Positions 3,270-52,440 of a stretch of DNA of 64,000 bases are shown here, in pieces (positions within the stretch are counted from its first letter, which is position 1; each line of letters opens with the position of its first letter). A program made the position numbers and the translations under genes. The notes beneath the pieces were generated by a model. The model did no database searches. It saw only the letters and a list, made by a program, of their open reading frames with translations, and was not told the DNA's origin. Source of the DNA: Blastocatellia bacterium (lineage in GTDB: Bacteria > Acidobacteriota > Blastocatellia > UBA7656); NCBI GenBank assembly GCA_963765495.1, contig CAVXWP010000007.1, forward strand, positions 192,001 to 256,000, in the 5' to 3' direction.

Positions 3270-3292
3270 TGATGGAAGCGAGGTGATCACAG

Positions 3293-18405: not shown

Positions 18406-18426
18406 ATTGCATCGTGCCTCCGGTTG

Positions 18427-21400: not shown

Positions 21401-21438
21401 CAGATGGTGGATTTAACTCGGTGCGAAGTGCGTTTCAT
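18427..21438 (-). CDS. Secreted transglutaminase-like domain protein with hydrophobic C-terminal tail
   Basis: AGGAG RBS before ATG 21438; signal peptide; IFNWVRNNIEF, GNAFD..SLLIALLR.SGIPARY, EHVWV, WVDIDAS; C-terminal hydrophobic hairpin. Confidence 0.8.
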   Translation of the reverse strand: MKRTSHRVKSTIWVLLVLMIWLYGGGRINAENYAAHANRTVPLSSLESRFDDLLSELKEVVRQGGAKAKTAPEKGFADIEKVIRLKERLAEEDEKIQEYFDGLEDFMERKKLPDEILSRHKQFASEYRARYEALMADLDGIESAHEAATGFWSKFTGANKKVDWDGVIGKTLNFLEENTPRPHKSNFDPKNLPHRALKADKPIPPKLTREEWLNAFAKEAAPSASAQPSSVKAQGSITLAATAPPTPADLAETIEVKFTPEIQQLADSLGRNPVKIFNWVRNNIEFVPTWGSIQGAELCMENRTGNAFDTSSLLIALLRYSGIPARYQMGTIDVPIDKAMNWLGGFTDSRAAARFAASGGVPSAGTVEQGGVLRSLRMEHVWVKAYLDYAPSEAAVNAHGDGWVDIDASFKLHVSTSGSDLLAASGFDPTAFNNHLESTAITNEAEGFVTGIDQAFIVTTVNSIADKFSAAFPGNDPDTLLVTRSIIAKELPVVPNSGPYRVISKGPAVSELTSAMRHLLLLTVADKDGRAILTFATTLPEIGSKSISVNYTFSTQADVDLVRSVLPSDIVNSVTPPSPQHVLDAIPAYLVSVRPLIKLDGITVNAGDRVGMGEAQTITIGFTAPTIQTPPVTLDLVAWGQYGITMDIAGTSKTPFLTRVDRLHLLAQQYEAANGQGLSAGAIDSRYHDLIRSAWFLSADNRSNIIARGFGIRFTRYPSLAFSYADYTFSSILGVPVRGLVGGYFLDVARQLHIATALDGDIVKEMNFNISAGLISSLLEGKVIPQIVFGQEPSSGGISAANAINSASQQGIPIYAIDSQNVDMSLAHIDQSYPSEAISDAVNAGRVVIVPQRPPVMDGELIDGYITMDPISGDAAYLVGRAHGGRLECLPDLSPTDMVLCQQALANAEFWETLGFILLAVATVGFLIAASIGGALLAVSELTTTLLKLAVVVGSDAALFAVLFDLGVCLVEGPKPPHATCARELLAFDLRFTGLGAWLVFLR

Positions 21439-21662
21439 TTTATCTCTCCTCGAAATCGACGGACCCGTATTGAAACCGCTACGGAACGCGTATAAGAGGG
21501 CATCAGATTTATTTTCCCTCTGTTTATTACCGCGTAAGAGGCCGGGAAAAGGTATCATTCGGCTTTAGATTTTCTTACCGGCGGGTTTATCATTAATTGA
21601 ATCTGGCAAGTAAAAATTTCGCGCCCTGACAACATTGACCTGTAACGAGGAAGTGTGCGGTT

Positions 21663-28099: not shown

Positions 28100-28196
28100 T
28101 GATGCGTGATTCGTGATTCGTGACCTGCCAGGTTTGCAAGTTGACTTAAACAGGCAGCCCATCTAAAAATCACGCATCACGCATCACGAATCACGC
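28098..28196. repeat. Inverted (CGTGATG/CGTGATT)n element with conserved core, between convergent genes
   Basis: The core cgtgacctgccaggtttgcaagttgacttaaacaggc...ctaaaaatcacg matches the reverse complement of 7729-7783. Confidence 0.85.
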
Positions 28197-29822: not shown

Positions 29823-29850
29823 TTGACATCACATATCGGAATGTTATAAT
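29823..29850 (+). promoter_or_regulatory. Consensus sigma70 promoter upstream of the giant gene
   Basis: TTGACA-16 nt-TATAAT with an extended -10 (TGtTATAAT). Confidence 0.7.
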
Positions 29851-30235
29851 CGTTCCCGTATCTAGCAGGGTTTCCAGAAGCTCGATTTGAGAATATCAAT
29901 CGTCAGTTCTACGTTTTGTGAAGTATATGCCACATTTATGATCAATTTAGTCAGTTAAGTAGGGACCGAAGCTTAGCCAGTGCTATTTTCGACTCCTGCC
30001 AGTTTCACTCGGTCATAACATATCCATACTTGCCCGGCGAGTATAGTGTCGAAAAGATGTCTTAAACCAAAAGGGTTTGCCCCGAAGGTTTATCGGAGTT
30101 CCGCCCGTGGGAGAGTCGATAGGTCTTGAATAAGGCAAGCCAAGCTCTTCGTGTGCCCAAACAGATGAGCAAACTTGTTGAGGAATCTGATTGGACGCAG
30201 CTTATATCTCCACATGCTTTCAAAATTACTAGGAG

Positions 30236-33200
30236 ATGGCAATGATCAAGTTCCAGCTTTACAAGAGTGGCCTCTACCTGACCGAAACCGACATCAATGA
30301 TCCGAGCAAGGCGCGCATCGGTTTCATGTTTCAGAGTGCCAGTGGGAATCCAACGACTTTCGAACTTTCTCAGCAGACGTGGATCGATCCGAACCAGCAA
30401 GGATACTTCGCGTTCTTCGTGCCGTCGGCCACGCGTGACTGGGACTCTTTTTCCGCAAGCGTTCGCAACCTGTTTAGCGGAACATTTGGCGCTCAGTTTG
30501 GATGGTTTTCAGAAAGCGGCGGCAACGTCACGGCAGAGACACTGTTTCTTGTCGGCAATCAGGGCACTTCAACGCCCCGCATCCAGTCACCGGCCTCCTT
30601 TATTTTTAACAATGTCACGCTGCAGATTCAGCCCAACCCTTTTGGACAACCTGCCGTCATCTCTTTCAACGACGATACAAATACGTTCGAGATCGTCAAT
30701 CCTTCCGTCAGTGGCCAGCCAGCTGTGAGAATCGTAGCGCAGCCTCCCGTCGGAGCATCCCAGACTTACTTTTCAAATTCGCCAAGCCTCTTGCTGCCGA
30801 TGGTCGATCCGCACGCGGGCAGCGTCAATGCCGGTTTCCAGTTTGACACGCAGGCGCTGGCTCAGTTCGAGGCGGGCTTCATGTATTTCGGGCCACCGCC
30901 TCAGGCGGGACAGCCGCTTACGGCGCTCAACTATCCGCTATTGCGCGCGCCCGGCGGCGCTCCGACTGCGCTCAATTTTCAAGCCTGGCTCGATGTGTTG
31001 CAGCCGCTTGTGGGTACGCGCTCGTATTTCCAGATCACCGATACCCAAACCGGCTCTTATTATGCCAGCACATCCGGGCGCGCTTTCGCATTGCTTACGA
31101 CAGCCGATGGTGACAGCGACCAGACGAGCCGACTGGTCTTTGCCAACCGCCCGTTCCAGACCACGGATGACGCGCAATTCTATTACCTGACCCCGGCGGG
31201 CAGGTTCCAACTGGCGATGGACCAAAACGGCGCGCAGAGCGTCTCTTCGTCCGCCCCGCCTTCCTGGCTGATGTGCGGAGTGACGGGAACCGAATTCCTG
31301 AACGCAAAGGTGTCTGGAGAAGTTGCCATACCTGATGCCCTCTACTTTCTGCCTGGGCAGGCTGCATATCGCGTCATACCCCCGCCCGATCAGCCTGCGG
31401 GCAATGATCCTCAACTCCTCGACGATGTCGGAGGCAACGTAACTACATCGTGGGTCCAGTACCTTACGAGTGAAGGCGGATACATCTCGCAACCCGAAGG
31501 GTCTCCGCTCTACGAGCAGGGCACAAACGGGTCGGGGCAATTGTCGGAGCAAAGTGCTTCAAGCGGGCTTACGGTTTATGTGCTCGACTTTTTGCCGTTG
31601 CCGTCCTGGTCGCCGACAACGACCGGGGTAGCCGCAGTTCAAGCTCAGACGGCAGCCCCGGCTGTGCCGATGACTCCATACGCGGGCATCCCGTTCACGA
31701 CCGATCTGACCCCCTTTCGGGAAATGGAGTCGCGGGCGCTGAACCCGACGCGCAAGAACGCGTTCACAAATGCGCAGCCTCCTGCGCAGCCAAAGACCGC
31801 CGATGCTGCCGCTGGGAACCTGACCTTTGCTATGACGCCGCAAGGGCTGCTGGCGGGGCTGACGAGCGCTCCGGCGGTCTGGACCACCACACAGATTGCC
31901 CTGAGCAAGTCCGGGATTCTTCAGCTCACCGATATGGGCAACGCCGTCCGTCAGGCGCTACAGCAGAACCAGATATTTATCGTCATCAGCACAACCGAAA
32001 ACGGGACCCTGTTTAGCTTCAACGGCAGCGATCAGACATTAGACATTGCCGACTGGCTCTTCAGCCTTTCGCCTGACGGCATAAAGGCGAGTGACGGGAC
32101 GCCGCCCATTCTGATACTCAAGTTTTATCCGGGGCAGTCGATCTCGACGCTTGTGAAAGATATGCAGTTGTGGTCCCAGCCCGACACCTTCAACGTAGCC
32201 CCGTTCGACGCCTCGAAGGCTCAGGCTTATGTGCAACAGCAGATTCAGCAGGCGTGCGAGGCGGTTTACGGCGCGGGCAAATGCACCGACGGCATCCCGT
32301 CTGGCGGAACGCCCGACACAAACTCGCTTTACTACAACTTCTACAGGGTAGTCACCGATCCGCTCTTCAACGGCATTCTGGCGCTCAATTGCAATATGCA
32401 ACTCAACGCCCTCCCGGCGGCCATACGCGCGGTCCTGGGCGGGATGACCGATGCATCCGGCGCGAGCAATCTGGATGCCTTTCGCGTCCACCACGTAGGC
32501 GTCGAGATCAACGACACCGACCCTAAAGTCTCTACGCCAACGCTTGCGCAAAGCTCGCTCTTCGGACTCGTAGACTATGAGAAACCGACCGACGGCGGCG
32601 CTCCGCCATTGGGTCTCGATGTCAAGTACAATTTCGAGGTCGAATTCCTTCGCGCCCTCTTTACAAACTCCGAATTGCGCGAATTTTCCTGCAAGATAAA
32701 CCTGACTATCAATAACCTCTTCGACACAGCAGTCTCGCTTGATGCAGGCTCGAGCAGCGCGCTCGTGGCGGAGGCCGAGTCCAGCAACGTAGTCGTTATT
32801 ACCGGCTCTTATCAGGCTCACTCAACGACCGGCGATGATGCGAACTCCGGGCAGGGCATATACTCTTTTCTGGCCGAAGGCAATTTTGCCTTCAACTTCG
32901 ACGAGGCCAACCCCTATCTGAAGAGCATCACGCTGACCAAGCTTCAGTTCTCGTTCCAGGAAGAGAACCCGACCGGCAACCCGAATACCTCTACCCTCAA
33001 GTCGCGCTTTTCCATCTGGGGAAACATGGTCTTCAAGGAACTCAACGTCCTTGATATTTTCTCTTTCGAGAAACTGGTCTTTGCCGATCTCGGCATTACC
33101 GTGAGCTTCGACCTGACGATTGATCCGCCAAATCAGCCTTCGACGGCAAATCTGAAACTGGGATTCTCGCCGGGCGATTTGCGCTTTGACTTTGCGCAGA

Positions 33201-36200
33201 CGACGGATCGGCAGTCGCCTACAAGTTTGCTGAGCCTGATCCCGTTCAAACTCAAATCCTTCCTGTACTCCCAGAACGCAGATCAAACGCTTCAGAGTCT
33301 GCAATATTACGCCGTAAGCGAAGTGCCCGGTCTGTCGAGCGTAAAGGACACGTTCAATTACGCGCTGATCTTCGATCTGGACCTGGGTTCGGTAGGCAGT
33401 CTGGTCGGCTCGCTTGCAGCCTTTAAGTTCAGCATCCTGATCGGCTGGCTGAGCGGTGACGAGGGAGGCATAGCCTTTGGCGTGCAACTGCCGGAGGCCG
33501 ACGGCAAACTGGAAATCAAGATCGAGGGTGTGCTGACTCTCTCTATTGAAGAGTTCAAGCTACAGTACAAGCCCATCGAAGACGGCTCCGGGAAGACCAT
33601 ATTCGTGCTGGCGCTGCATAATTCATATCTGGAATTGTTCGGCACCAGGCTGCCGCCCGGAAATGCGTTTTTCGATTTCGCACTCTTCGCGCCGAGCGAT
33701 GACGCGGCGCGAATCGGCTGGATAGCCGCCATCAATAATCAGTCAAAAGAGAGCGGCGGAAGCGAAAGCCTCGCGTTGAGAAGTGATGGTCAGGCGCTTG
33801 CCGAAAACGGAAACGGGAGCCCGGTCTTTGAACTGGTATATCTCGGCGGCGGCCAGCGAGTCGGCCCCGACCCGAGCAAACCGCCTACCAACTTTCAGGA
33901 CTTCCTCTCTTTCATGACGGGCGATTTCTGGGACGCGGTCAAAGCCAACAAGTACGACGAAGTCTATCACCCGGACAGCAACTGGCTGGTCGTAAGCGAT
34001 TTCAAACTGCTTGGCATCATCGAGGTCGGCTTCGTCTTTTATGATTTCACACCCTTCTACAGCCTGACGCTCAATGTCACGAAGTTGTTCAATTTCGAGA
34101 TCACCTATACAAAGATCAGCGACTCGATAGGGCTTTTCTATGCCGATCTGGCCTTGCCCGATACGCTGCGAACATTTCAGGTAGGCGCGGCCTCGCTGAC
34201 GCTGCCCTCCATCTCCGTGAGCGTCTACACAAACGGGAACTGGAAACTCGACGTAGGTTTCCCAAAAGGCGACGATTGGAGCCGGTCCTTCCGTGTGCAG
34301 GCGCAGGCCGGTCCTGTGCCCGTAACAGGGTCGGGCGGGTTTTATATCGCCAGCCTCAGTTCCGCCACAAGCTCTATTTTTAAGGGGAACTATCCGAGCA
34401 TCGTCGCCTTCGGGTTTGCCGCCCGTCTAGGCGTAGGCAAAGACTTCACGAGCGGCCCGCTCAAGGCAGGCATAAGCGTAACCTTCTTCGGCATCATTCA
34501 GGGCGCAGGCGGATACCTGGCAAGCGGCTCGGTGGATATATTTCAAACGCCCGACGCGCTCTCTTTGCAGGGGCAGTTCGGCATCATCGGCGAGCTTTAC
34601 GGCTCGATTGATTTCAAGATCATCAAGGCCAGTGTCAATGTGACGCTACAGGCCAGCATAGGCATACAGCTTTTATGGGAGCGGTCGATTCCCGGCAGCG
34701 GAACGATACTTCTCTATGTCGAAGCAAGCGTCAAGTTGAGTATAAAGGTGAGTATAGGCTTTGGCTTCTTCTCGATCTCTATCAGCTTCAGCTTTAAGGC
34801 CTCGTTCCGTTTCGAGTGGGTACTGGCCGGATCGCCTCCGTCGGTTGCGCTTCGCGCCCAGTGGTCCGAGCGTCTGGCGACAGGGTTTGTGCTTACGGCT
34901 GCGCCGCTTGCGCTGTGTCCGGGCTTGAACTCTAAAGTGCCGCTCTGGTTCCTGCCGGAACTCACGGTGATCTTCCCGAATACGACCGGCACGGGCGCGC
35001 CGTGGTTTGTCTGCTCGCTTGGCATCCCGTACGACTCGAACCCGCCCGCCGATCCTACTTACGCGCAGTTTATGCCTTTCGAGGCCGTCACTACGCAACT
35101 CGTGACCTGGGCGCTTTCGAATACCTCGGAGCACACGGGCTGCTCATCGGTAGTCACACAAGAACAGTTGCAGGGACTCGACGAGGCTCCTGAGATACTG
35201 GTTGGCTGGGTAGATTATCCGTCGCTCATAACCGAACTGTCGAATTTCGCGGTCGAGATCGTAGTCCCGACCGGCGAGCCGGGAACCGAAAAGAGCGCGA
35301 CCACATTCCCGATGCTCCCCTTCCTGAAGCTTGAGACGAAGGGCCGCCTCGAAGGCGGTCAGTCTGCCGATCTCTCCTATCAGTTCTTGTCAAAGAATCT
35401 GGTTTCAGACAGCTACATTCAGGAAGTCGAAGAGTATTTCAATCAGCTTTTCGTCAATCAGACTCAGGGCGAGCCGCCCACGCTCAAAGCGGCTACGGAG
35501 GCGACCACGCCCCTGATTCAGGAGATATTCCTCGACTATTTCACCGGCCTGATACGGGGCGGCGTGCATCAGCTTTTGCAATACATGCAGGACGAGAAGA
35601 TCACGGAATCACCGCTTGACGAACTGATCCGCAAGGCGGTCGGAGCCGGTCTGGTCATGTCGCTTGCCGGTCAGATGTCGAGTTCGTTCCGGGGTGGGGT
35701 ACGACTGCCTTACACGCCGGGGCTGACGGTTCCGGGCGGGGCGGCGCTCACGACTACCAATCCGCTTTACGCGCTGCTGTGGCAGGAATTTCCCGCAGGC
35801 CAACTCAGCCCCGTCGAGGGTGATACGACTACATCGCAGTACACTATCGAACTCACAAACCCCGACGCTACGCAGACGTGGGTCAAGTCAAGCGTCAACT
35901 GGCCGCTTACAAATGAGGAACTCGCCCCGTATCAGAACCTCAAGGCGAGCGACGTGATACCGCCGAGCGTGCCCGTGCAGTTGCCGTTTACCAATACCGG
36001 CCCGCAGTCGTTCTCATTTGAAAATCCCGTGGTCTGGACTCAGCCCGACAATAAGACCGTGAGCCTGCGCCCGTTCCCCTCTAATTTGCAGCAACTCCAG
36101 AGCGTGGAAGCAGGCGCAATCAGCGTGCTTGTGGAATCGCGCGAGACGGGCGCTCCATATCTGCCCGGCGGCACCCTGCTCTCGCCGCAGAGTTTCAACT

Positions 36201-39200
36201 GGGTGACGATGATAACCCTGACGGTCAAGCAGATTCCGGCGACTTCGGGCAAAGACTCGCTGCCGGACATTTTCGCCCTGAGCGGAGCCAGTCAGCAGGA
36301 TCAAGCTCTGATCGAGCAGATTCTCCGCGAACTTGAAGGCGGGGAAGACCCGATAGTTTCGCTCCAGGTGCTGTACCAGACCGAAGCCGGGGCCACCGGG
36401 CTCACATCGGTTACGATCAATCCGCAGGATGTATTCGCTCTGCGGACCAACACGACTACAGTTTCGGCCCCGCCCGCGAGCGCAAACCTCCTTTTCAAAG
36501 CCCTGGCCGTGACGCCCGGCGTAGCCGTAGGCGCGACCATAGATGACCATTACGGTTTCCTCCAGATCATTCAGCAGGCGGCCGTAACGAATGCCCCCGG
36601 CTACAACCTCCGCTATGAGGATGCGACGGGTAATGGTCTGCCGACGGACCTGTTCAATGCCGGTCCCGCTCCGCTGACCTTGCTTGTGGCTTATAAACCG
36701 GACGGCTCACAAAACACCGAAGCCTCGCCCGCTCAGGTGCTTCCTTTCTACAACGGTATCGTGCTCACAGCCGCCGTGGATGGTCTGTTGTATTACGCGG
36801 ACACGACCGACCCGGCTCTTGAAACGCAGTACAATGCCGTGGCGGCCGGTTCGGTTGGCGCAGAGTTGACGCGTTCCGATAGCGTGATGAAATTGCGTAC
36901 GCCACAAACGCTTGCCGCAACAGCCGGGCTTAAATCAGAAGGAGGTCACACGCGCGCGGAACTCGTCAGCGCCATCTGCGCGGCGGGCGTAACGGATCAC
37001 GCACAACTGCGCAGTCTTATGGTTGAAGCCGGGGCCGCGCCCGCTCAATTGAATGCCCTCTACAGCCTGATTACCTATCAGGTCGAAGCGTCGGCGGGCT
37101 TTATTCAGAGCAACCTCTCGGCACCCATCCAGCCTCAGCAGCCCGACCCCGATACCGAAAGCGAACTGCGCGATTACCGCGTGTTTGTGCCGCTATATAA
37201 TCTGGCCACCGCAAATCAATCTCTGCCGCCCGATACCCCGCCCAACCGTTACGCGAGCATAGATGCTTCGTTCAGCGTTGATTTCTTCCAGAACGATGCG
37301 TTTGGAAATCAGATGCCGACCTCGCTCGGTTTCGGCGGGACCAATCTCTATTTCGATCCGATCACGCCCGTAGACGAATGGCTCGGCGTAGTGACGGCCT
37401 ACGACTTCCTTGTCGACACCAAGCCGCAGCCAAATACCTTTAGCGTCTATCTGTACCCAAGCGCCTCGGCTTTCTCCGGCGATGAGTTTACCTCCGATCA
37501 GGCCGCCGCCGCGCTGCAACTCTACCAGACCGCGTACGACCAGATCACCGGCCCCGGCGTTTCCTTCTATGTAGAGGCCAACTTTGCGCTTCAATCGGAT
37601 GGAACTATGGTAAAGGTCGAACTGTCCCAGTCGCAGAGTGCGGCCATTGTGGATATGGTAGGCAAGCTGGTCGAGTATCTGGAGAAGTTCGATACCAACC
37701 CGCCGTTTGATGTGCCGCCGGTAACATTGACGGTGAGTGTGACGGGAACCGGAACGCTTCCGCCCGTATTCGAGATGGCCGTGCTGCTCGGCATCGAACG
37801 CGACCCGGATTTGGTTTCGCCTCTGCTTAAGAATGAGTTCGGGCAGATCACATTCCCCTCGGCGCAGAACGTAAGCAGCACGATCTCTTCGACCGTCGGA
37901 GCCTCGCTCGATGGTCAGTCCTCCGTAGACATCAACACCTTCGCGGCAAACTTCGTGCAGGCATTCCCGGCCCTGTCGCTTTCGGTCGGGCTCAACGGGG
38001 CGACATCGCCACAGCAGCAATCGAGCGCGGGGCTTGCGCGCAAACAACTCAAGGCTCTCGGCCTGCCCGGTGACGGGACGGGCGCGAGCCAGAAGGGACC
38101 GCAGTCGCTCTGGGCTGTTCAGCACTCGTTGCTCGACATTACCATAGGCGCGGGCGCGGGCTCGGGGCCGCGCTACATGTCGCCCAAGCCGCTTGATAAC
38201 ACGCTCAACACTGCGGTCGTGCCCTTGCCGCAACTCGATAGCTCGCTTCCGCAGTTGCCCACCGAGCAACTCTTCACCGATGTGGACCTCGATCAGTTCA
38301 ATCGATCTTTCTTCCAGTCGGTCGATAACATACTCGCGCCCGCCTCGGCGGCCAAAGCCTTCGAGGTGGCGACCGATGCCTACAACACCATAACGCTCGG
38401 GCGTAAGACGCTGGCCGAAGAGTACTCGCAATACGAGGTCGAATGGTTGTTCTCGGTCAATTCGCCCTTCACAGGAACCAGCGATCAACTCACAGCCGCG
38501 CGCGAAGATTTCCAGCAGCAAATGCGCGCCGCATTGCTGACGGCCTACTCGGTCGATACGCTCGTGCAGTATTCGGTTAGCTGGAATTCGAGCGTACCGC
38601 CTGCCGCCGATGATCGTATTTCGCTCTTTGGTCAGGTGCAGCCTCCGAGCGGGCCGCTCAAGGGGAACGACGGGCTTTCGACCGCTCACGTAGCGGTAAG
38701 CAGCACCGGCCCCGGGCTGCTGACATTCCTCTATGGAACCTCGGCAGTGCGCGACATCGCGCAGGTATCGCTCGACCTCGTATACAATGTCACGCACGTC
38801 GAGTACTTCCTTGAGCCTGCGAACCAGACCCCGCCCGGCGAGGCGCGTCCGTCGATCTGGCTGCAACTCGTGAACCCCTATCCAGACGGGTTGCCTCACA
38901 TAGGCCCGGCAGATAAGGAGACGATCATCCCGCTGGTCTTCCGCCAGTACCCGACGCCGCCCGTATTCATAAACCAGTCGGGAGCCGAGGGAACGAGTTC
39001 TGAACCGACAAACCAGACATCCGAGAACCCGCTTACGGCTGCCGCCGCCTGGCATTACATCTATTCCTATCAGTCGCAGCTTACGGCGCACGACCTGATC
39101 ATCAGCCTGATAACCTACAACACCAACCTGACGGCGGCCTCAAGCGGCGGGAATCAGTTAAAGACTGCCAATGCGGCGGCGGGGCCGTTTACGCTATTTC

Positions 39201-40315
39201 AGGCGCTTGCGCGCTTCACGGCCGCTTACGCCTTGCTACAGCCGATCCTCAAAAATCTCGATGATCCGGCCTGGGCGAAGGCGGCCGAAGCCTTTGCCTC
39301 GCTCGTAACCGAAGTCACCGAGAATATAGACTGGAACCCGGTGAATCAGTTTGCGCTCAAGGCATCGCTTGCCAACATCACAGACAGTTACACGATCACC
39401 GACGTGCCGCAAAACAACCAGCAACTCATCACGCTTGAATGGACCCCGGAGCAGGGCGAGTCAAGCTGGCCGGGCGCTACGCTTTCAATCCTTGCGCTTG
39501 CCCCCAACGGGCAGCCCTATCCGAATCAGATTCAGGGAAAGGTGCCCAACGGGATTACAGACCTCTACACGCCCATCCCGCCGCTGGTTGATCAGTGGGT
39601 GATTCATCAGGTTGAGGTTGATTCGCTCAACGTGCTGATGGCCGAAAACGCGCTGATGGGTGTTCAGATAGAGCGCAACCTGATTCAGTTGGAAGACGGG
39701 CAGGGGACGACCTGGGAGGCTCTAACCGAGTTTGTTTACAAGACGCCGATGGTGCGTCCGAGCCAGCCGGTCACGCCGTTTGTCACCTACGACGGGGCGA
39801 TTGACGTAGCGCAATTGCCAAATCAGGGGATAAGCACCGGGTGTCCGTCGTCGGAGTCCAGCCTGTGCCAGCGCGTCTACACGATGATGTACGACCTGCT
39901 GGCCGACCCCGATCAGATAACGGGATTGCTTGAGGCAAAGGTTGGAGCGGGTCTTGAGGAGAGCGCGGCGCGGCGTGTGAAGGTCGGATGCGGCTTCCAG
40001 TATCCGGTGTCGGCGGTATCGGGCGGCCAGGTAGGCAACAATCCGATCACTCCTCTGGTTCCCGTAGTGCTGGCGCGTTCCTTTGATCTGGATGCCGCTC
40101 AGGAGGATCAGTTGAATGAGTTCGCCGATCTTTACTCTCAGGCCATAAGTCATTGGAGCGATATAAGTGGAGTGAGTTTCGGACCCTCCTCAGAGCCCGC
40201 CCAGGCGCGGCTGGTTTTTGACATAACGCTATATGCGCAATTAAGCGGCCTCAACACTCCCGTGCTGCGGCTGTCGAATTTGCAATTGAAGCTAACCGAT
40301 ATAGACCCGGTTTGA
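30236..40315 (+). CDS. Giant uncharacterised beta-rich protein, 3359 aa, no signal peptide
   Basis: Uninterrupted 10,080-bp ORF with host-like codon usage and AGGAG upstream. It has a long run of amphipathic beta-strands at about aa 780-1530. No enzymatic motif was recognised. Confidence 0.9.
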   Translation: MAMIKFQLYKSGLYLTETDINDPSKARIGFMFQSASGNPTTFELSQQTWIDPNQQGYFAFFVPSATRDWDSFSASVRNLFSGTFGAQFGWFSESGGNVTAETLFLVGNQGTSTPRIQSPASFIFNNVTLQIQPNPFGQPAVISFNDDTNTFEIVNPSVSGQPAVRIVAQPPVGASQTYFSNSPSLLLPMVDPHAGSVNAGFQFDTQALAQFEAGFMYFGPPPQAGQPLTALNYPLLRAPGGAPTALNFQAWLDVLQPLVGTRSYFQITDTQTGSYYASTSGRAFALLTTADGDSDQTSRLVFANRPFQTTDDAQFYYLTPAGRFQLAMDQNGAQSVSSSAPPSWLMCGVTGTEFLNAKVSGEVAIPDALYFLPGQAAYRVIPPPDQPAGNDPQLLDDVGGNVTTSWVQYLTSEGGYISQPEGSPLYEQGTNGSGQLSEQSASSGLTVYVLDFLPLPSWSPTTTGVAAVQAQTAAPAVPMTPYAGIPFTTDLTPFREMESRALNPTRKNAFTNAQPPAQPKTADAAAGNLTFAMTPQGLLAGLTSAPAVWTTTQIALSKSGILQLTDMGNAVRQALQQNQIFIVISTTENGTLFSFNGSDQTLDIADWLFSLSPDGIKASDGTPPILILKFYPGQSISTLVKDMQLWSQPDTFNVAPFDASKAQAYVQQQIQQACEAVYGAGKCTDGIPSGGTPDTNSLYYNFYRVVTDPLFNGILALNCNMQLNALPAAIRAVLGGMTDASGASNLDAFRVHHVGVEINDTDPKVSTPTLAQSSLFGLVDYEKPTDGGAPPLGLDVKYNFEVEFLRALFTNSELREFSCKINLTINNLFDTAVSLDAGSSSALVAEAESSNVVVITGSYQAHSTTGDDANSGQGIYSFLAEGNFAFNFDEANPYLKSITLTKLQFSFQEENPTGNPNTSTLKSRFSIWGNMVFKELNVLDIFSFEKLVFADLGITVSFDLTIDPPNQPSTANLKLGFSPGDLRFDFAQTTDRQSPTSLLSLIPFKLKSFLYSQNADQTLQSLQYYAVSEVPGLSSVKDTFNYALIFDLDLGSVGSLVGSLAAFKFSILIGWLSGDEGGIAFGVQLPEADGKLEIKIEGVLTLSIEEFKLQYKPIEDGSGKTIFVLALHNSYLELFGTRLPPGNAFFDFALFAPSDDAARIGWIAAINNQSKESGGSESLALRSDGQALAENGNGSPVFELVYLGGGQRVGPDPSKPPTNFQDFLSFMTGDFWDAVKANKYDEVYHPDSNWLVVSDFKLLGIIEVGFVFYDFTPFYSLTLNVTKLFNFEITYTKISDSIGLFYADLALPDTLRTFQVGAASLTLPSISVSVYTNGNWKLDVGFPKGDDWSRSFRVQAQAGPVPVTGSGGFYIASLSSATSSIFKGNYPSIVAFGFAARLGVGKDFTSGPLKAGISVTFFGIIQGAGGYLASGSVDIFQTPDALSLQGQFGIIGELYGSIDFKIIKASVNVTLQASIGIQLLWERSIPGSGTILLYVEASVKLSIKVSIGFGFFSISISFSFKASFRFEWVLAGSPPSVALRAQWSERLATGFVLTAAPLALCPGLNSKVPLWFLPELTVIFPNTTGTGAPWFVCSLGIPYDSNPPADPTYAQFMPFEAVTTQLVTWALSNTSEHTGCSSVVTQEQLQGLDEAPEILVGWVDYPSLITELSNFAVEIVVPTGEPGTEKSATTFPMLPFLKLETKGRLEGGQSADLSYQFLSKNLVSDSYIQEVEEYFNQLFVNQTQGEPPTLKAATEATTPLIQEIFLDYFTGLIRGGVHQLLQYMQDEKITESPLDELIRKAVGAGLVMSLAGQMSSSFRGGVRLPYTPGLTVPGGAALTTTNPLYALLWQEFPAGQLSPVEGDTTTSQYTIELTNPDATQTWVKSSVNWPLTNEELAPYQNLKASDVIPPSVPVQLPFTNTGPQSFSFENPVVWTQPDNKTVSLRPFPSNLQQLQSVEAGAISVLVESRETGAPYLPGGTLLSPQSFNWVTMITLTVKQIPATSGKDSLPDIFALSGASQQDQALIEQILRELEGGEDPIVSLQVLYQTEAGATGLTSVTINPQDVFALRTNTTTVSAPPASANLLFKALAVTPGVAVGATIDDHYGFLQIIQQAAVTNAPGYNLRYEDATGNGLPTDLFNAGPAPLTLLVAYKPDGSQNTEASPAQVLPFYNGIVLTAAVDGLLYYADTTDPALETQYNAVAAGSVGAELTRSDSVMKLRTPQTLAATAGLKSEGGHTRAELVSAICAAGVTDHAQLRSLMVEAGAAPAQLNALYSLITYQVEASAGFIQSNLSAPIQPQQPDPDTESELRDYRVFVPLYNLATANQSLPPDTPPNRYASIDASFSVDFFQNDAFGNQMPTSLGFGGTNLYFDPITPVDEWLGVVTAYDFLVDTKPQPNTFSVYLYPSASAFSGDEFTSDQAAAALQLYQTAYDQITGPGVSFYVEANFALQSDGTMVKVELSQSQSAAIVDMVGKLVEYLEKFDTNPPFDVPPVTLTVSVTGTGTLPPVFEMAVLLGIERDPDLVSPLLKNEFGQITFPSAQNVSSTISSTVGASLDGQSSVDINTFAANFVQAFPALSLSVGLNGATSPQQQSSAGLARKQLKALGLPGDGTGASQKGPQSLWAVQHSLLDITIGAGAGSGPRYMSPKPLDNTLNTAVVPLPQLDSSLPQLPTEQLFTDVDLDQFNRSFFQSVDNILAPASAAKAFEVATDAYNTITLGRKTLAEEYSQYEVEWLFSVNSPFTGTSDQLTAAREDFQQQMRAALLTAYSVDTLVQYSVSWNSSVPPAADDRISLFGQVQPPSGPLKGNDGLSTAHVAVSSTGPGLLTFLYGTSAVRDIAQVSLDLVYNVTHVEYFLEPANQTPPGEARPSIWLQLVNPYPDGLPHIGPADKETIIPLVFRQYPTPPVFINQSGAEGTSSEPTNQTSENPLTAAAAWHYIYSYQSQLTAHDLIISLITYNTNLTAASSGGNQLKTANAAAGPFTLFQALARFTAAYALLQPILKNLDDPAWAKAAEAFASLVTEVTENIDWNPVNQFALKASLANITDSYTITDVPQNNQQLITLEWTPEQGESSWPGATLSILALAPNGQPYPNQIQGKVPNGITDLYTPIPPLVDQWVIHQVEVDSLNVLMAENALMGVQIERNLIQLEDGQGTTWEALTEFVYKTPMVRPSQPVTPFVTYDGAIDVAQLPNQGISTGCPSSESSLCQRVYTMMYDLLADPDQITGLLEAKVGAGLEESAARRVKVGCGFQYPVSAVSGGQVGNNPITPLVPVVLARSFDLDAAQEDQLNEFADLYSQAISHWSDISGVSFGPSSEPAQARLVFDITLYAQLSGLNTPVLRLSNLQLKLTDIDPV

Positions 40316-40395
40316 AATTCGCCTTTTGCACGCGGGCGGTTTCACGCAGAGTCAAACCACTGCCCCCCCCGGGGCGTTATTTTAAGGAGAAAACG

Positions 40396-41115
40396 ATGGC
40401 AAAGTCTAAGAAACATGACTTTCTTGTAATTGACCAGAATTCTGTCAACACAACGTGGACCGGATCGCCGACCACGCTTTTGCCAAATCAGAACGCGAAC
40501 CTGCCGCAGACGACAAACGGCTCGATGGTATTCGCCTATCAAAACCAGACGACAAAGAACAATCAGGGAACGCTGTCGCTCACATCGGGAGGAGGCGCGC
40601 CTGATTTTTTGACCGCGCAGGCACTTGCCAACCAGCCGAGCATACTGGTCAAGAACTGGCAGGCCAACAACCTGAGCGTCACAAATATCAGCCCTCCTTC
40701 TTCTGACACGCCGATCTGGATCATGGCGATTGGGCCGGGTTTGCCCGGGGTCAATCCGGCAACTCTGCCTGTAGACGGCACCCCCGTAGGGTTGAGCACA
40801 AATCAAACGGCTCAAGGCAATGCGTTGCCCCGATACATGCAGATGGTCATCCAATCCAACACGGGCGATCTGACCATAATCGCCGTAATCGGCGGCCCGC
40901 CCGACCAGTCAGGCAATAACGCGTATGTCTTTGCGGTGAACTCGACTCAGAACACTGGCCCCGGAACGGGCTTTCCGCCACCGGCAGGTTATTACGCTAC
41001 CTCGACCAGCAATTTCATCACGTTCCAGTTTAACTGGGGCAGCTCGGCGATCTTTGTTGCCAATATGTCGCCAGCGACTGCGGCTGTGGCCAAGGTCTCC
41101 GTGCGGGCACTCTAA
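40396..41115 (+). CDS. Hypothetical N/Q/S/T-rich two-repeat beta protein, paralogue 1 (239 aa)
   Basis: AAGGAG RBS before ATG 40396; clearly homologous to the next two genes. Confidence 0.88.
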   Translation: MAKSKKHDFLVIDQNSVNTTWTGSPTTLLPNQNANLPQTTNGSMVFAYQNQTTKNNQGTLSLTSGGGAPDFLTAQALANQPSILVKNWQANNLSVTNISPPSSDTPIWIMAIGPGLPGVNPATLPVDGTPVGLSTNQTAQGNALPRYMQMVIQSNTGDLTIIAVIGGPPDQSGNNAYVFAVNSTQNTGPGTGFPPPAGYYATSTSNFITFQFNWGSSAIFVANMSPATAAVAKVSVRAL

Positions 41116-41129
41116 GTCTAAACTAAATC

Positions 41130-41161
41130 AAGCCCCGATGGCTCGACCATCGGGGCTTTTT
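41130..41161 (+). terminator. Rho-independent terminator-like hairpin between paralogues 1 and 2
   Basis: aagccccgatgg-ctcga-ccatcggggctt followed by ttt. Confidence 0.7.
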
Positions 41162-41174
41162 GCGAGAACCGTCT

Positions 41175-41903
41175 ATGACTACTCGAAAGCATCCCCCAAG
41201 CTCAACCTTTCAGCTTATCGACCAGAACTCCGTCAACTCAACGTGGAACGGGTCCCCGATTACGCTTTTGCCAAACCAGAACGCGAATATGCCGCAGACG
41301 ACAAACGGCTCGATGGTCTTTGCCTACTTCAACCAGTCTCAGCAGAACAATCAGGGGACGCTGTCGCTCACGTCGGGAGGAGGCGCGCCTGATTTTTTGA
41401 CCGCGCAGGCACTTGCCAACCAGCCGAGCATACTGGTCAAGAACTGGCAGGCCAGCAACCTGAGCGTCACAAATATCAGCCCTCCTTCTTCGAACACGCC
41501 GATCTGGATTTCGGCATTCGGGCCGGGGCTGCCGGGATGGTTTTGCCTCTCTCTTCCAACGACGGGCAACCCAGTTCAACTCGGTGTGGCGCAGTGCGCG
41601 CAGGGTAACGCCGAGCCGCGATACATGCAACTGGTCATGCAATCAAGCACAGGAGACCTGACCATTTTTGCCGTAATCGGCGGCCCGCCCGATCAGTCAG
41701 GCAACAACGCGTATGTCTTTGCGGTGAATTCGACTCAGAACACAGGCCCCGGAACGGGTTTCACGCCACCGGCAGGCTATTACGCCACGACTACAGGCAA
41801 TTTCATCACGTTTCAGTTCAACTGGGGCAGTTCACTTGTGTACGTGGTAAATCTATCGCCCTCATCGGCATCAGGAGGTAGAGTGCAACTTTCCCGGCTG
41901 TAA
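41175..41903 (+). CDS. Paralogue 2 (242 aa)
   Basis: Same LLPNQNA..PQTTNGSMVFAY / NWQA.NLSVTNISP / GGPPDQSGNNAYVFAVN / FQFNWGSS motifs. Confidence 0.88.
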   Translation: MTTRKHPPSSTFQLIDQNSVNSTWNGSPITLLPNQNANMPQTTNGSMVFAYFNQSQQNNQGTLSLTSGGGAPDFLTAQALANQPSILVKNWQASNLSVTNISPPSSNTPIWISAFGPGLPGWFCLSLPTTGNPVQLGVAQCAQGNAEPRYMQLVMQSSTGDLTIFAVIGGPPDQSGNNAYVFAVNSTQNTGPGTGFTPPAGYYATTTGNFITFQFNWGSSLVYVVNLSPSSASGGRVQLSRL

Positions 41904-41935
41904 TCTCGGCCGATTAAGTAAATTAAGGATTGATC

Positions 41936-42664
41936 ATGGCCGGTACAAATATGCCTTTCCAGTCAGTGCCCTTCGCCATCATCGGAGTATTCAGCGTTGC
42001 CGACACCTGGAACGGGTCGCCGCTAACTCTCCTCCCAAACCAGAACGCGAATATGCCGCAGACGACAAACGGCTCGATGGTATTCGCCTATCAGAACGTC
42101 TCCAAGCAGAACAATCAGGGAACACTCTCGCTCACATCGGGAGGGAGTGCGCCGGATTTTCTGACCGCGCCCGCGCTTTCCAATCAGCCGGAGATTCTGG
42201 TCAAGAACTGGCAGGCCAACAACCTGAGCGTCACAAATGTCAGCCCCCCTTCCTCCGACACGCCGATCTTGATTCAAGCCATCGGTCCGGGCATTCCGGG
42301 AGTAAATCCTCTTGATCTTGCGGTAGGAGACCCCGTAAACCTCGCGCCCGGACAGACCGCGCAGGGAAACTCATTGCCCCGATACATGCAACTGGTCTTA
42401 CAGGCCAGTTCGGGCAATCTGACTACTTTTGCTCTCATCGGCGGCCCGCCCGACCAGTCGGGCAACAACGCGTATGTCTTTGCGGTGAACTCGACTCAGA
42501 ACACAGGCCCCGGAACGGGTTTCACGCCACCGGCAGGCTACTACGCTACGACTACAAGTAATTACACGACATTCCAATTCAACTGGGGCAGCTCAACGAT
42601 CTTCGTCGCCAACATGTCGGGCGAGACAGCGGGACCGGCAACCGTCAGCCTGCGCCAGCTTTGA
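41936..42664 (+). CDS. Paralogue 3 (242 aa)
   Basis: Same motifs; AAGGA RBS. Confidence 0.88.
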   Translation: MAGTNMPFQSVPFAIIGVFSVADTWNGSPLTLLPNQNANMPQTTNGSMVFAYQNVSKQNNQGTLSLTSGGSAPDFLTAPALSNQPEILVKNWQANNLSVTNVSPPSSDTPILIQAIGPGIPGVNPLDLAVGDPVNLAPGQTAQGNSLPRYMQLVLQASSGNLTTFALIGGPPDQSGNNAYVFAVNSTQNTGPGTGFTPPAGYYATTTSNYTTFQFNWGSSTIFVANMSGETAGPATVSLRQL

Positions 42665-42668: not shown

Positions 42669-42808
42669 TGCGTGATCCGTGATGCGTGATCCGTGATTTA
42701 CCTGATTCGCAAATTATCTTTAACAAATAACCTGCCTGAAAGTCACGCATCACTCTTCACGCATCACTCTCCACGCATCGCGCATCACGCATCACTCTTC
42801 GCATCACT
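42669..42808. repeat. Inverted (CGTGATG/CGTGATC)n element
   Basis: gcgtgatccgtgatgcgtgatccgtgat ... tcacgcatcactcttcacgcatcac...; the core resembles that of 10354-10455. Confidence 0.85.
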
Positions 42809-43683: not shown

Positions 43684-45216
43684 ATGAAAAAGATTTTCTT
43701 TGTCGCCCTGTTGCTCGTTATCGCTTCGGGCCGCGCGCGCACACAGCAGACAACGCCCTTGCGATTCGAGGTCACTGCTTCCCGCGATCTTATCAGCACC
43801 CCTGAAAGCGGGCGAATGTTTGTCATCATCAGTCCGCATAATAACCCTGAGCCGAGGCTCACCATAGGCACTACGGGGCTGACGGCCCCTCCTGTCATTG
43901 CCCGCGACATAGATGATTTTTCGCCTGGTGTGACGGCAAGCCTCGACCGAAGCGCCGCCATCTTTCCGATTGATGATCTCTCCAGCCTGCCCGCCGGAGA
44001 CTATTTCGTGCAGGCGCTGTTTGATTCAAACGCCGATCTCAAATCAGTAAACGCGCCGGGCAATCTATACAGCGCGGCAAAACGAATCCACCTTGATCCG
44101 AATACGAGCGGGGTTGTGAAGCTGGAATTGACCCAAAAAGCGCCGCCCGAACAGTTGCCCGCCGAAACCGAGATGGTCAAGTATGTAAAGATTCAATCGA
44201 AGTTGCTCAGTGAGTTTCACCATCGGCCTATATATCTGCGCGCGGGCGTAATCCTGCCGCGCGACTTCGACCGCGACCCCGCGCGCCGTTATCCTCTCTG
44301 GGTCCACATAGGCGGTTACGGTTCGAGCTATACCGGTGTCAAAAATATGATGTCTGAGCGAGCGGGCTTTCGCGAGGCGTGGATGGCCGACGATGCGCCT
44401 CGAATGATCCTGCTCCATCTGGATGGAGACGGCCCCTTCGGAGACTGCTATCAGGTCAACTCGGCAAACAACGGTCCTTACGGCGATGCGATCACTCAGG
44501 AACTGATCCCCTACGTAGAGAAGAAATTTCGAGCCATAGGCCGGGGCGATGCTCGCGTGCTTGACGGAGGCTCTACCGGGGGATGGGTCTCTCTGGCTCT
44601 TCAGGTATTTTATCCCGATTTCTTCAACGGCACGTGGACCTATTGCCCGGACGGAGTCGATTTCCGCGCCTTTCAACTCATCAACATTTATCGAGACAAG
44701 AACGCCTACGTAAATGAGCACGGCTTTGAGCGCCCGAGCGCGCGCGACCTTGACGGCGACACCCGTTTCACGATTCGCCACGAATGCCGGATGGAAAACG
44801 TAATGGGCAGGGGCGATAGCTGGACGATGTCGGGCGAGCAGTGGGGAGCGTGGAACGCCACTTACGGGCCACGCGGAGCAGACGGTCGCCCGGTGCCTTT
44901 GTGGGACCCAAAAACCGGAGAGATCGACCGCAGCGTGATTGAGCATTGGAAGAAATATGATCTTCGCCTGATAATGGAGCAGAACTGGAAGACGCTCGGC
45001 CCAAAACTACGCGGAAAGATTCACATCTGGGTGGGCGAGGCCGATACCTACTTTTTAAACAACGCCGTCCACATGCTCGACGAGTTTCTGAAAAAGGCCG
45101 ATCCGCCTTACGAAGGCCAAATCATTTACGGACCGGGACAGGGTCATTGCTGGCGAGGCATAACCGACCGCCAGGTCATGAATGAGATGGCACAGGCAGT
45201 AGGCAGTAAGCAGTAG
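43684..45216 (+). CDS. Exported alpha/beta-hydrolase (esterase family)
   Basis: Signal peptide; GGSTGG nucleophile elbow; NSANNGPYG; D and GH catalytic positions. Confidence 0.85.
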   Translation: MKKIFFVALLLVIASGRARTQQTTPLRFEVTASRDLISTPESGRMFVIISPHNNPEPRLTIGTTGLTAPPVIARDIDDFSPGVTASLDRSAAIFPIDDLSSLPAGDYFVQALFDSNADLKSVNAPGNLYSAAKRIHLDPNTSGVVKLELTQKAPPEQLPAETEMVKYVKIQSKLLSEFHHRPIYLRAGVILPRDFDRDPARRYPLWVHIGGYGSSYTGVKNMMSERAGFREAWMADDAPRMILLHLDGDGPFGDCYQVNSANNGPYGDAITQELIPYVEKKFRAIGRGDARVLDGGSTGGWVSLALQVFYPDFFNGTWTYCPDGVDFRAFQLINIYRDKNAYVNEHGFERPSARDLDGDTRFTIRHECRMENVMGRGDSWTMSGEQWGAWNATYGPRGADGRPVPLWDPKTGEIDRSVIEHWKKYDLRLIMEQNWKTLGPKLRGKIHIWVGEADTYFLNNAVHMLDEFLKKADPPYEGQIIYGPGQGHCWRGITDRQVMNEMAQAVGSKQ

Positions 45217-45353
45217 GCAGTAAGCAGTAGGCAGTAGGCAGTTGATATTACCGGAGGCGGGTACCAACTATTCATATGCATGCCCCGTGCATTCTTTAGC
45301 AGTAGTCGTTAGTTCAACACGCACTGCCTACTGCCTACTGCTTACTGCCTACT
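45194..45353. repeat. Inverted (AGGCAGT/AAGCAGT)n element
   Basis: Seven units at 45194-45242 overlap the esterase stop codon; reverse-complement units lie at 45323-45353. Confidence 0.9.
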
Positions 45354-49084: not shown

Positions 49085-52000
49085 TCAGAAATTAAATCTG
49101 AGCGCGAGTTGAATGACACGCGGGTGAGAGGAAAGGACTCTGTCGGGTCTGTTGAAGAAGCCGTCAGGCGCGATAGTAGTCGGCGAAATCTGAAGCAGGT
49201 TCGTTACGGCGGCGCTCGTCTGGCTGGTTGCTTCTACGCCGTTGATGGAACCGGGAACAAACTGCGGGTGGTTGAAAGCATTAAAGAAATCGGCACGGAG
49301 TTGAAACCTCATGCTTTCACGAAACGCGAAGTTCTTAAAGACCGAGAAATCCAGATTGTTGATTCCCGGCAGTTGCAGAGTGTTGCGACCTGCGTCGGTC
49401 CTTGCAAATATCTGCGCCTGAATGTATTGAGCATTCGGGTTGTCTGCGACATAGGCGACGGTCGCGGCGTTGCCGATTGGCACGGTCGCCCCCGACCTGT
49501 TGATTGCGTGGACGGTTGTGGCCGTGCCTTCCAATCCGTTGGGGTTGATGATGGAGCGGTCGCCCGCATTGTCGCCGTTTTGATTGGCGTCAACGCCGCT
49601 TCGAACCGTGGCCTTCTCGCCCGACTCAAAAGTCAGGGTTCCGGCAAAACTCAACCCGCCCAGGAATGTGCGGGCAATCCAGTGCTCGCTGTTGTTGAAG
49701 TACGGCAGATCGTAAATCCCCGAAGCCACAAAGCGTTGGCGGTGATCGAGCGCCGAGTCGGCCTTTTCACGCTTCAGGTTCTGGAAATCTTCTACACGGC
49801 GGGGTGAAAGCACAGTGGAGAAGACCTCGGCGGTCGTGTCATCAATCAGATGGCTCCAGGTGTAAGCGCCGTTGATCTGAAAACCTTTTGCGAGGCGGCG
49901 CGTGACCTGAGCCGAGAAGCTGTTATAAGAGGAATTGCCGTTTGACAGGAAAGAAACAAGCGCGCTTGAGCCGAAACCGGCAGCCGCAAACTCCGGCTTG
50001 AATCGCGGAGGCGCTGCTGCTGCAACCTGAGCCAGTGTGGGCAGCCCGGCAAGATCGCTTCCCGACGGCTGCGAGGCAAAGGTCGGGATAAAGTTTGTAT
50101 CGGTGACACGCGACTGGATGTTGATCCGATTCTGTGTCAGCAGGTGAACGCCCCGCGTGCCCAGATAGCGCAACTCAAGACCCCAGTCCTTGAGGAACTG
50201 GCGTTGATAGCTGAGCGTGTAGGTGATCGAGTAGGGCACCTGTTGATCGGGAACATAGGAGGCGGTGGCTGCCCGCGCGTCGTCCGGGTTTGTAACGGGC
50301 GTCAGAACCGGAAGTATGCCGCCGTTCCCGAGGAAATTATGTACGCCCGGATCGACATCTATGGTCTGTGTGAATTGCGGCGGAAGCGACAGGATGTAGA
50401 GGTTATCGAATATCACATCATAGGCCATAGAGAAGCCCGCGCGGATCGAACTCGCCCCGTTTGTGCCAAACAATGTGTGCTTCCAGCCGGAGTCATAATC
50501 GGGCGCGTAGGCGATGCCAAGCCTCGGAGCGAAGTTCTTCTTTTGAGGCTTTGGCGCGCGGAAGTCGATCAGGTCGGGAACCGACGAGATTGCATTCAGC
50601 TTTTGTTGCCGCGCGCTGAAGGGCAATTGCTGATAGGCGTAGTTCAGACCGAGGTTGAGCGTCAGGTTTGGTCGCACGCGCCAGTCGTCCTGGCCGTAGA
50701 AGAACAGGAGCTTTTGATTGCCTTCGTACGGCGATATGCCTATGGAACGTTCTGAGAATTCCGGGCTGATGTCGCGCAGGAAATCTTCGGTCGAGTTGTA
50801 GTCGTAATCGCCTCGCTGGCGCTGTACAAACGACTGCGGCGAAATTATTTTGCGACCGTCGCCTCCGACCTTTATCGAATGATTGCCCCAGAGATACGAG
50901 ACATTGTCAACGAGTTGATAATTGTTCTCGATGCCGAACTGCGGGGCATTGGGATCGGGTCCGATGTTGAGGCCAAGCTCGTTTAACTGGATGTTGGGGA
51001 ACTGGTCGAGGCCCGGAAACTGGAAGTCTCCGGCGGGGTCAGAGAGACGGAACGCCGGTAGCCGAAGCGCAATTCGTTTATGAATTTCGGCGTGAAGTTG
51101 TGCACCATCGTGTAAGAGAAGAGGCGCGTATCGGTTGGCAGCAGAAGGAAGAAATCGGGCAGGCTGGCCGCGTTGTCAATCTGGCGCAATTCATTGTAAA
51201 TGTAGCGGCCACGGTGCTGCGTCTTGTCGCTCTGGGTGTAATCAATGTTGATTACGAAATGGTTGTTGTAATAGAAGTTTGGCGATGGGATATTGACGAT
51301 GCCAATCGGGATATTGACTCCGCCGACTACGATATGCTGGCTCCCGTCCTGAGCAGGCGCTACGGGAACAAACTGCTTGAGTATACCAAGGTTTGTTGAA
51401 GAGAGGCCGGGGATTCTATCGAGCGCGGCAAAACCGGCGGAGGTCGGAGTCTCAACGGCTCCGGCTCCTGCGGCCTGCCCCGACTGAAATCTTTCGAACG
51501 CCCCGAAGAAGAATAGTTTGTTCTTTATGATCGGCCCGCCGAAATCGCCTCCAAAGCGGCCATAATCAAAACGCGGGTTGGGGTTGGGGTTGTCGGGACT
51601 CGTATCGCGAGTGATGCCCGCAGCCAGATCGAGCGTATCGAGCGCATTGAGGTGCCGATTGCGGAAGAAGCCATAGGCTGTGCCGTGGAACTGGTTGGTT
51701 CCGCTTTTTGTGGCGGTGATAAATTGTCCGCCTGTCGAGCGGGCGAATTCGGCGGAATACTGATTTTGAAGGAGCGAAAATTCCGCCACATCCTCGGGCG
51801 AGACATAGACCTGCGGGCCGGTGACGGACTTGTCGTTGTTATCCACGCCGTCTACGACAAAGTTATTATTGCGCGGGCGTTGTCCGCCGATTGAGCCGCC
51901 CGTGCCTACGCCCACGCCGCCGCTGCTTGTGACGTTGGGGGCGACAAGCGCGAGATTGTAGATGCCGGTTTGTCCGGTCGTAGCCGTTTGAGCCAGGTCT

Positions 52001-52440
52001 ACGACCTGACGGGATTCGAATCCTTTGGCCAGGTTGGTTGTGGTTGCATCCACGAGTTCGGCCCCGCCTGCCGATACGGTGACCGATTCTGTTACGAGCC
52101 CCGCCGTCAGCGTGCCCGATACGTTTGTTGTCTGATTCAACTGTACGCGCACATCGTCGAGGGTCAGTGACTTGAAGTTTTCGGCTTCAATGGTGATCCT
52201 GTATTCGCCGACCGGCAAATTCTTGAATTCGAAGTCGCCGCTGTCCGAGCTTTGTGTGTTTTGTGTGTTATTGGTGCTCTTTTCAAGAATAGATATCCTG
52301 GCGCCCGGCACTACTGCGCCGGTCGAATCCTTAACAATACCGCGCACGTTGCCGAGCGTTTGTTGAGCAAGCCCCGGCGCTACAAGCGATAGCAGCAGTG
52401 CGAAGCCTGTAATCAAGCTGGCGAGATTCTTGGTTCTCAT
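49085..52440 (-). pseudogene. Oar-like TonB-dependent receptor with one frameshift (real lesion or sequencing error)
   Basis: N-terminal ORF 50983-52440 (signal peptide, carboxypeptidase-regulatory-like domain, plug) and C-terminal ORF ending IQLALRFNF join if one base is added at the G4 run 51035-51038. Confidence 0.85.

Follow-up and report, generated by a model that had tools for sequence, protein, structure and literature searches.

A stretch of 64,000 nucleotides from a Blastocatellia bacterium (contig CAVXWP010000007.1, positions 192,001 to 256,000; hereafter the window) carries, on its forward strand, one giant gene followed by three small paralogous genes, which belong to a gene system for which the searches made found no family model, solved structure or literature description; its relatives are anonymous, and its mechanism is as yet weakly outlined. 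By sequence, the giant is two genes, A and B, that stand apart in other bacteria and are here joined in one open reading frame (ORF). The genes themselves, the linkage of the giant and small families, the homology of both modules to separately encoded proteins, and the presence in relatives of enzyme and arm genes that can be swapped are matters of observation; a tentative case can be made for a particle with a fixed scaffold and variable partners.

The giant had been called an orphan in the initial annotation, a description that does not survive, as at least 107 matches (107 of the 120 among the matches listed, the window's own copy included) had an E value of 0, and the others in this group were 36–66% identical to it, many over the full length. 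Named carriers of these homologues are found in the Myxococcota, Acidobacteriota, Alphaproteobacteria and Gemmatimonadota. Neither the giant nor the small protein matched a family in Pfam, NCBIfam, PADLOC or PHROGs, and sequence searches of the PDB with both gave nothing significant; when the giant was searched as six pieces the best E value was 0.017, again not significant. No internal repeats were detected in it by BLAST or HHalign. The earlier statements that it has neither a transmembrane helix nor a Sec/Tat signal held up, in that no such helix was obvious (the highest 19-residue hydropathy window, 1.69, falls within predicted strands), no hydrophobic helix near the N-terminus was seen when the N-termini of homologues were compared, and no signal peptide was evident, judged by eye, at the N-termini of 16 giants.

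Module A comprises residues 1 to ~1170 (30236..33745) and corresponds to a separate gene of ~1100–1370 residues in split relatives, and module B comprises residues ~1193 to 3359 (33812..40315). Between them lies a Gly/Ser-rich linker, residues 1172–1192 (33749..33811), in which the predicted local distance difference test (pLDDT) falls below 50 at positions 522–542 of the structural model described below, and which is also a site of insertion in homologues, the insertions coming after residue 1187. In 43 of 56 loci (L095–L150) the giant profile was divided over two ORFs, one for A (1 to ~1170) and one for B (from ~1192), and the break between the two genes coincides with the low-confidence linker of the fused form. 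On a Lysinibacillus plasmid the two are likewise split, with no gene between them and an A gene that spans profile positions 2–1166. Most B genes of relatives have, in addition, an N-terminal beta-rich segment of ~780–850 residues (~160 in some) that is sometimes a gene of its own; many contain LysM inserts, and one fused homologue contains BR0599 inserts. The window's clade is devoid of the beta extension, of both kinds of insert and of an enzyme gene. In four loci from metagenome-assembled genomes (L026, L032, L034, L038) the giant is spread over two to three ORFs with differing break points, which are frameshifts or assembly errors.

The initial annotation had also suggested a resemblance to DUF6603/LysM-type giants, and here the two halves of the comparison part ways. 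The likeness to LysM giants (e.g., WP_273995198.1 and WP_013436642.1) is true homology, module B being colinear with them from residue ~1190 to the end at 22–38% identity, without their LysM inserts, and module A, residues 1–1170 in the window, being their upstream hypothetical gene of ~1200 residues. Compared with these proteins, the window has A and B fused and three jelly-roll genes, and it lacks the LysM inserts, the ~780-residue extension and the enzyme gene; LysM repeats (PF01476) were absent from the giant by Pfam search, whole and in pieces. The LysM giants bear automatic names only ("LysM peptidoglycan-binding domain-containing protein"), and no function for them was described in the searches made. 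Membership of DUF6603 (PF20248), in contrast, was dropped on sequence grounds, there being no Pfam match, whole or in pieces, and no BLAST or hidden Markov model match between the giant and the proteins encoded at eight loci of the phylum that carry DUF6603. HHalign comparisons with DUF6603 proteins and their companion genes gave probabilities of at most 2.1%, from template alignments of only 3–5 rows, and a language-model likeness of 0.86 between residues 1001–1800 and DUF6603 serves as a lead only. DUF6603 is itself uncharacterised, a literature search on the term having found nothing. In the source genome the DUF6603 model found only a different gene, of 426 residues, on contig C5 (L043:14242-15931); a 177-residue ORF overlaps it, giant companions are absent, and it may be what is left of a truncated cassette. 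In two genomes of the phylum DUF6603 occurs in single ORFs of 3278–3283 residues (L055:3916-13749 and L058:3244-13092) that are unrelated to the giant by sequence.

The split relatives reveal what else the scaffold may travel with. A hydrolase-type gene lies between A and B in 25 of the 43 split loci, 14 being of the EEP type, nine of the metallo-beta-lactamase type, one a phospholipase D and one an HNH pair. In the remainder the slot is occupied by an unknown family of ~600 residues (two loci, with fusion of the same family to B in three further loci), a pair of ~150-residue proteins (six), pieces of the beta extension (two) or a doubtful ORF (one), or else is empty (seven). No signal peptide was evident by eye in the seven N-termini of slot enzymes that were inspected. 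On a Paenibacillus plasmid an NAL1-type protease gene is directly upstream of module A (L165:7874-8854), and a protease of this type is found next to DUF6603 giants as well. Beside the scaffold stand genes for collagen-repeat proteins (eight loci) and glycosyltransferases (seven loci), for fn3 or LamG proteins, and for a second family of tandem-beta proteins of ~220–300 residues, often paired. The fn3/LamG proteins and certain partners of other fused giants, which bear signal peptides, have a C-terminal domain in common (HHalign, 95.8%). The collagen-repeat loci (L102, L105, L106, L110, L111, L112, L114, L117), some with Kelch tips and most also with a tetratricopeptide repeat (TPR) glycosyltransferase, are reminiscent of the neighbourhoods of spore-surface glycoproteins; the tandem-beta family flanks split scaffolds in nine loci (L096, L097, L101, L104, L109, L123, L159, L162, L164), with a signal-peptide-like start in one copy.

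In the window's own clade the partner is the small protein. Searches produced 285 matches to it, and also 137 clusters at 50% identity, nearly all of them standalone proteins of ~210–300 residues or fragments thereof. A scan of species genomes with the small-protein profile showed that the giant adjoins the small gene in 35 of 37 loci (directly upstream in 34 and downstream in one), the two loci without a giant being contigs of just 2.3 and 2.5 kb. Among 22 close metagenome loci with a giant, small genes were present in 16, three fragments end inside the giant and three (L082, L084, L092) have none on the fragment, which amounts to 16 of the 19 whose fragment includes the 3' end of the giant, so the co-occurrence that the initial annotation had proposed to check is found in both samples. 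Copy number is also rather constant: in 43 loci with flanking room there were three small genes in 33, four in five, two in four and one in one. A quick tree, built on 107 rows taken from the window and from 34 loci, puts the copies at positions 1, 2 and 3 in clades of their own for several lineages, while the window's three copies group together. The only fused form among 7988 candidates, in a search that was weak, was P0243, a 517-residue protein whose C-terminal part is homologous to the small domain and follows a weak Ig-like match, an isolated example in keeping with a binding tip. The small family showed no homology to the giant, the beta extension or the other families of partner proteins, and an atlas search with the small protein reached 0.89 at best, to unnamed clusters, again a lead only. 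Apart from these genes, neighbours shared by close loci were confined to groups of near kin and to one block of genes. In four Labrys and Mesorhizobium loci (L023, L024, L033, L039), genes for a multicopper oxidase, a tyrosinase and a LodA-type lysine oxidase are co-oriented with and downstream of the small genes, and these could be cargo or chance neighbours.

The small protein was modelled with a pLDDT of 90.5 as two jelly-roll sandwiches, residues 13–117 and 112–239. Its domains resemble a broad set of jelly-roll binding domains (collagen-binding/PPC, CBMs, Ena pilin, PirA, the SID-1 ectodomain), a generic fold at 5–16% identity and without a sequence match in the PDB. The best match was the collagen-binding domain of collagenase (1nqd; Z 9.3, root-mean-square deviation (rmsd) 2.5, 96 residues aligned), and the CBM, GOLD, Ena and PirA rows were at background level, a Z below 8 being common background. 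Prediction of a three-copy complex gave a score of 0.46, against 0.00 for the best of three controls, with the runs having 90% or more of their contacts in common and the partner pLDDT being 88 or higher. Of proteins with solved structures, 20 of 30 self-pairs and 1 of 23 single chains attain the mark set for this score, figures that apply only approximately to the present case. The predicted contacts describe an open chain, in which domain 1 of each copy faces domain 2, with the final Leu, of the preceding one; this Leu ends the sequence of 87 of 99 small copies. The small proteins are thus predicted, from models, to associate head-to-tail as an open-ended chain. The multi-subunit assembly imagined in the initial annotation, a scaffold with accessory subunits, fits the evidence, this self-association included, but the predicted oligomer is not a closed trimer. 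A role for the third subunit as a chain terminator lacking the C-terminal Leu was not seen either, as the Leu is kept in 31 of 32 first, 28 of 35 middle and 28 of 32 last copies. The Ena pilins of endospore appendages are single jelly-rolls with a cysteine-linked N-terminal connector, whereas the window's small proteins have two domains and small protein 1 has no cysteine.

For the giant, an AlphaFold2 model of residues 651–1800 (77 alignment rows; pLDDT 78.8; predicted template modelling score (pTM) 0.54) shows a long antiparallel run of strands at residues ~750–1531 (32483..34828), crossing the joint between A and B and followed by an alpha/beta region. The most conserved part of the giant, residues ~1250–1500, falls within this predicted sheet. 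The alternating hydrophobic and polar strands noticed earlier were borne out: the strands quoted at the time are at residues 902, 1465 and 1511, and 29 of 35 scored strands are amphipathic, giving one clearly more hydrophobic face, with the last six being 19–20 residues long. Outer-membrane beta-barrels (CymA, maltoporin, the OprD family) were the top fold matches, CymA with Z 13.7, rmsd 6.8 and 209 residues aligned; the matches are partial, with rmsd of 7–10 Å for most, and many span the A/B joint at rmsd of 9–10. Unlike such barrels, the sheet is internal in a chain of 3357 residues, no signal peptide is evident and homologues occur in monoderms. The lack of an evident signal peptide and the monoderm carriers led us to set a porin aside, and the sheet is read, from the model, as curved, open and continuous across the joint. 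A viral structure library gave only TM-scores of about 0.1 or short matches, and neither bridge-like lipid transfer proteins nor pore-forming toxins were among the top 50 structural rows, which does not exclude them.

Based on these features, it seems possible, though at somewhat less than even odds, that the four genes make one particle, put together in the cytoplasm and set free when the cell lyses, in which the giant would be the scaffold and the small proteins a short arm that binds a target. The scaffold would be built around the predicted curved sheet, and the three jelly-roll proteins, if the complex prediction is a guide, would stack head-to-tail, dock on the giant and reach onto a target surface, taking over the targeting role that the LysM inserts, collagen, fn3/LamG and other small beta proteins may have in relatives. 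The particle would act on the envelope of another cell. In relatives the scaffold would carry the exchangeable enzyme as payload; since the window's clade has neither an enzyme gene nor the beta extension, its particle would work by way of the sheet's own hydrophobic face, through membrane contact or lipid removal, or use cargo encoded elsewhere. The fuller proposal, which we consider doubtful, is that A and B form a delivery particle of adjustable length, spread over many phyla and with slots for an enzyme and an arm, of which the window would have a minimal, enzyme-free version with an arm made of three different jelly-roll subunits in a chain and an amphipathic sheet that attacks or extracts membrane lipid. 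An analogy, and one of architecture only, can be drawn with the Tc toxin B/C and Rhs cocoons, which likewise combine a large beta-sheet scaffold, no signal peptide and, as in the relatives, an exchangeable enzyme partner. Family searches of the window's proteins found no RHS/YD repeats, SpvB or TcA domains, and the YenB/RHS2 row in the Foldseek search with the giant had an E value of 1.1e-3 at a TM-score of 0.08.

Several observations weigh against a particle of this kind. The giant model spans only residues 651–1800, at its pTM of 0.54. Conservation in the interface columns of the small protein (0.56 and 0.60) is on a level with that of the remaining columns (0.59), and a "terminal" subunit tied to one position was looked for without success. 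In two of the metagenome loci (L082 and L084) a lipoprotein-like partner takes the place of the small genes beside a full giant, and the small gene was present in none of 58 distant loci. No enzyme neighbour is common to the close loci, except for the multicopper oxidase/tyrosinase/LodA block of the four Mesorhizobium/Labrys loci. In other clades, certain partners have the look of secreted proteins, a misfit with a purely cytoplasmic assembly. Lastly, some loci are near duplicates, and the slot-enzyme families rest partly on BLAST clusters, because several of the Pfam matches are weak or absent.

The same evidence can be arranged differently. The small proteins might polymerise into filaments, rings or a lattice, as an appendage or shell for which the giant is nucleator or anchor, and the open head-to-tail interface, the perfect promoter described below, the likeness of a single domain to the pilin Ena1B (Z 7.5, rmsd 2.7, 87 aligned) and a weak Foldseek match to PyShell (TM-score 0.29) are all in keeping with this. 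We nevertheless think it improbable, in that three copies with position-specific clades suit a short defined chain better, the small gene is missing from most of the superfamily, and structural matches at these Z values are background. Rather less probable again is that the small proteins are a cargo or toxic partner, such as the PirA-like binding subunit of a binary toxin, with the giant as carrier or pore: domain 1 does resemble PirA (Z 6.9, rmsd 2.7, 85 aligned), the clade is without an enzyme gene, and amphipathic strands that end in six of 19–20 residues would suit a pore, but the PirA match is at background level, pore-forming toxins are not among the top fold matches and no immunity-like gene is present in close loci.

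We would give about the same slim chance to the giant being a lipid conduit or lipoprotein-like carrier for the producer's own envelope, comparable to TamB/YhdP or to apolipoprotein sheets. A long sheet that is hydrophobic on one side, its extension in relatives by a beta segment whose length varies, and slot enzymes several of which have folds that include phospholipases are what such a carrier would call for. Bridge-like lipid transfer proteins (TamB, YhdP and VPS13), however, have a repeating beta-groove fold that is hydrophobic on its concave side, and the bacterial ones have an N-terminal membrane anchor. The giant shows amphipathic strands, no hydrophobic helix at the N-terminus and no evident signal peptide, and its fold lists are filled by barrels. 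Its carriers include monoderms as well as diderms, and a rare, patchy (3 of 251 genomes) and plasmid-borne distribution is unlike that of a housekeeping function. That mobile, patchy distribution, and split loci whose nuclease- and lipase-fold enzymes have no evident signal peptides, would be compatible with an intracellular conflict or defence assembly in which the scaffold keeps a nuclease or lipase inactive until a trigger; we rank this lowest, as quite unlikely, given that PADLOC found no match, the window's locus has no enzyme, and partners with LysM, collagen or LamG parts suggest ligands outside the cell.

The layout of the locus is largely as first annotated. It begins with a putative sigma-70 promoter (29823..29850) that, as had been claimed from the outset, matches the consensus, at 12 of 12 positions, and it has an extended −10 TG; perfect sigma-70 sites, this one included, number 14 in the 7.3-Mb genome. 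The promoter is followed by a leader of ~385 nucleotides (29851..30235), and a structured RNA was considered there and dropped, as an Rfam search gave no match and its folding is no stronger than expected (z −0.03). The AGGAG at the end of the leader directly abuts the first ATG of the giant ORF (30236..40315; 3359 residues, modules A and B in one gene) and is 6 nucleotides from a second ATG at 30242. Because of this spacing, and because the homologues start like the protein read from 30242, the latter is the likely true start, giving 3357 residues. The small genes follow at 40396..41115 (239 residues, the predicted tandem double jelly-roll), 41175..41903 (242 residues) and 41936..42664 (242 residues), all co-oriented with the giant, and genes 2 and 3 are 76–77% identical to gene 1, so that the ORF calls and identities agree with the arrangement originally noted, a 10-kb ORF and three paralogues. 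Divergence among the small genes at the DNA level is greatest at the N-terminus, at codons ~120–160 and at the C-terminus. Between small genes 1 and 2 is a 13-bp hairpin with T-runs on both sides (41130..41158, no strand assigned), a possible terminator or stability element. The GC content at third codon positions of the four genes (0.67–0.70) is inside the range of eight neighbours (0.63–0.73), and the flanking genes, for a PQQ beta-propeller on the opposite strand and a protein with a molybdopterin-binding domain, are unrelated to the locus, as had been said.

The heptamer elements that were thought to bound the locus proved not to be a feature of it. The inverted arrays at 42669..42808 (no strand assigned) are of a genome-wide intergenic repeat type, one 11-mer of which has 277 genome copies and its complement 274, and a reading of them as borders was dropped. 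Across the genome there are 407 tandem arrays of heptamers, built on several types of unit, which make up a REP-like repeat family; those of the window (28100-28196, 42669-42808 and 45194-45353) are intergenic and partly in inverted pairs. Elsewhere in the window, on the reverse strand, a TonB-type outer-membrane receptor gene (OMP_b-brl_4; 49085-52440) is in two ORFs that cover profile positions 1–244 and 379–816, and by sequence is possibly broken or mis-assembled; a gene for a 2137-residue protein with a prenyltransferase-like alpha toroid, FG-GAP and Ig repeats (11992-21558, reverse strand) lies downstream of a 1043-residue transglutaminase-like gene.

In genomes of the phylum the scaffold is present in 3 of 251 and the small gene in 1 of 251. 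Relatives occur on nine plasmid records, tblastn found no match in phage genomes, and the carriers include monoderms (Streptomyces, Lysinibacillus and Paenibacillus) and diderms, among them the cultured Minicystis rosea DSM 24000, Sulfidibacter corallicola M133, Labrys miyagiensis and several Mesorhizobium species. The literature searches made found no description of the system, and passages of PMC12419801, PMC11297309 and PMC3482391 do not describe it, although supplements may list these proteins.

What the comparisons do achieve is to unite giants labelled "hypothetical" or "LysM domain-containing" as a single modular system, in which the scaffold stays the same and both the enzyme slot and the binding partners vary. 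Should delivery of an enzyme or action on a membrane be its true function, the system would constitute a bacterial weapon or export route for which the searches made gave no match to Tc, Rhs or phage-tail-type families. The window's four-gene version is among the smallest seen, and that small size means that it may be expressed whole and imaged.

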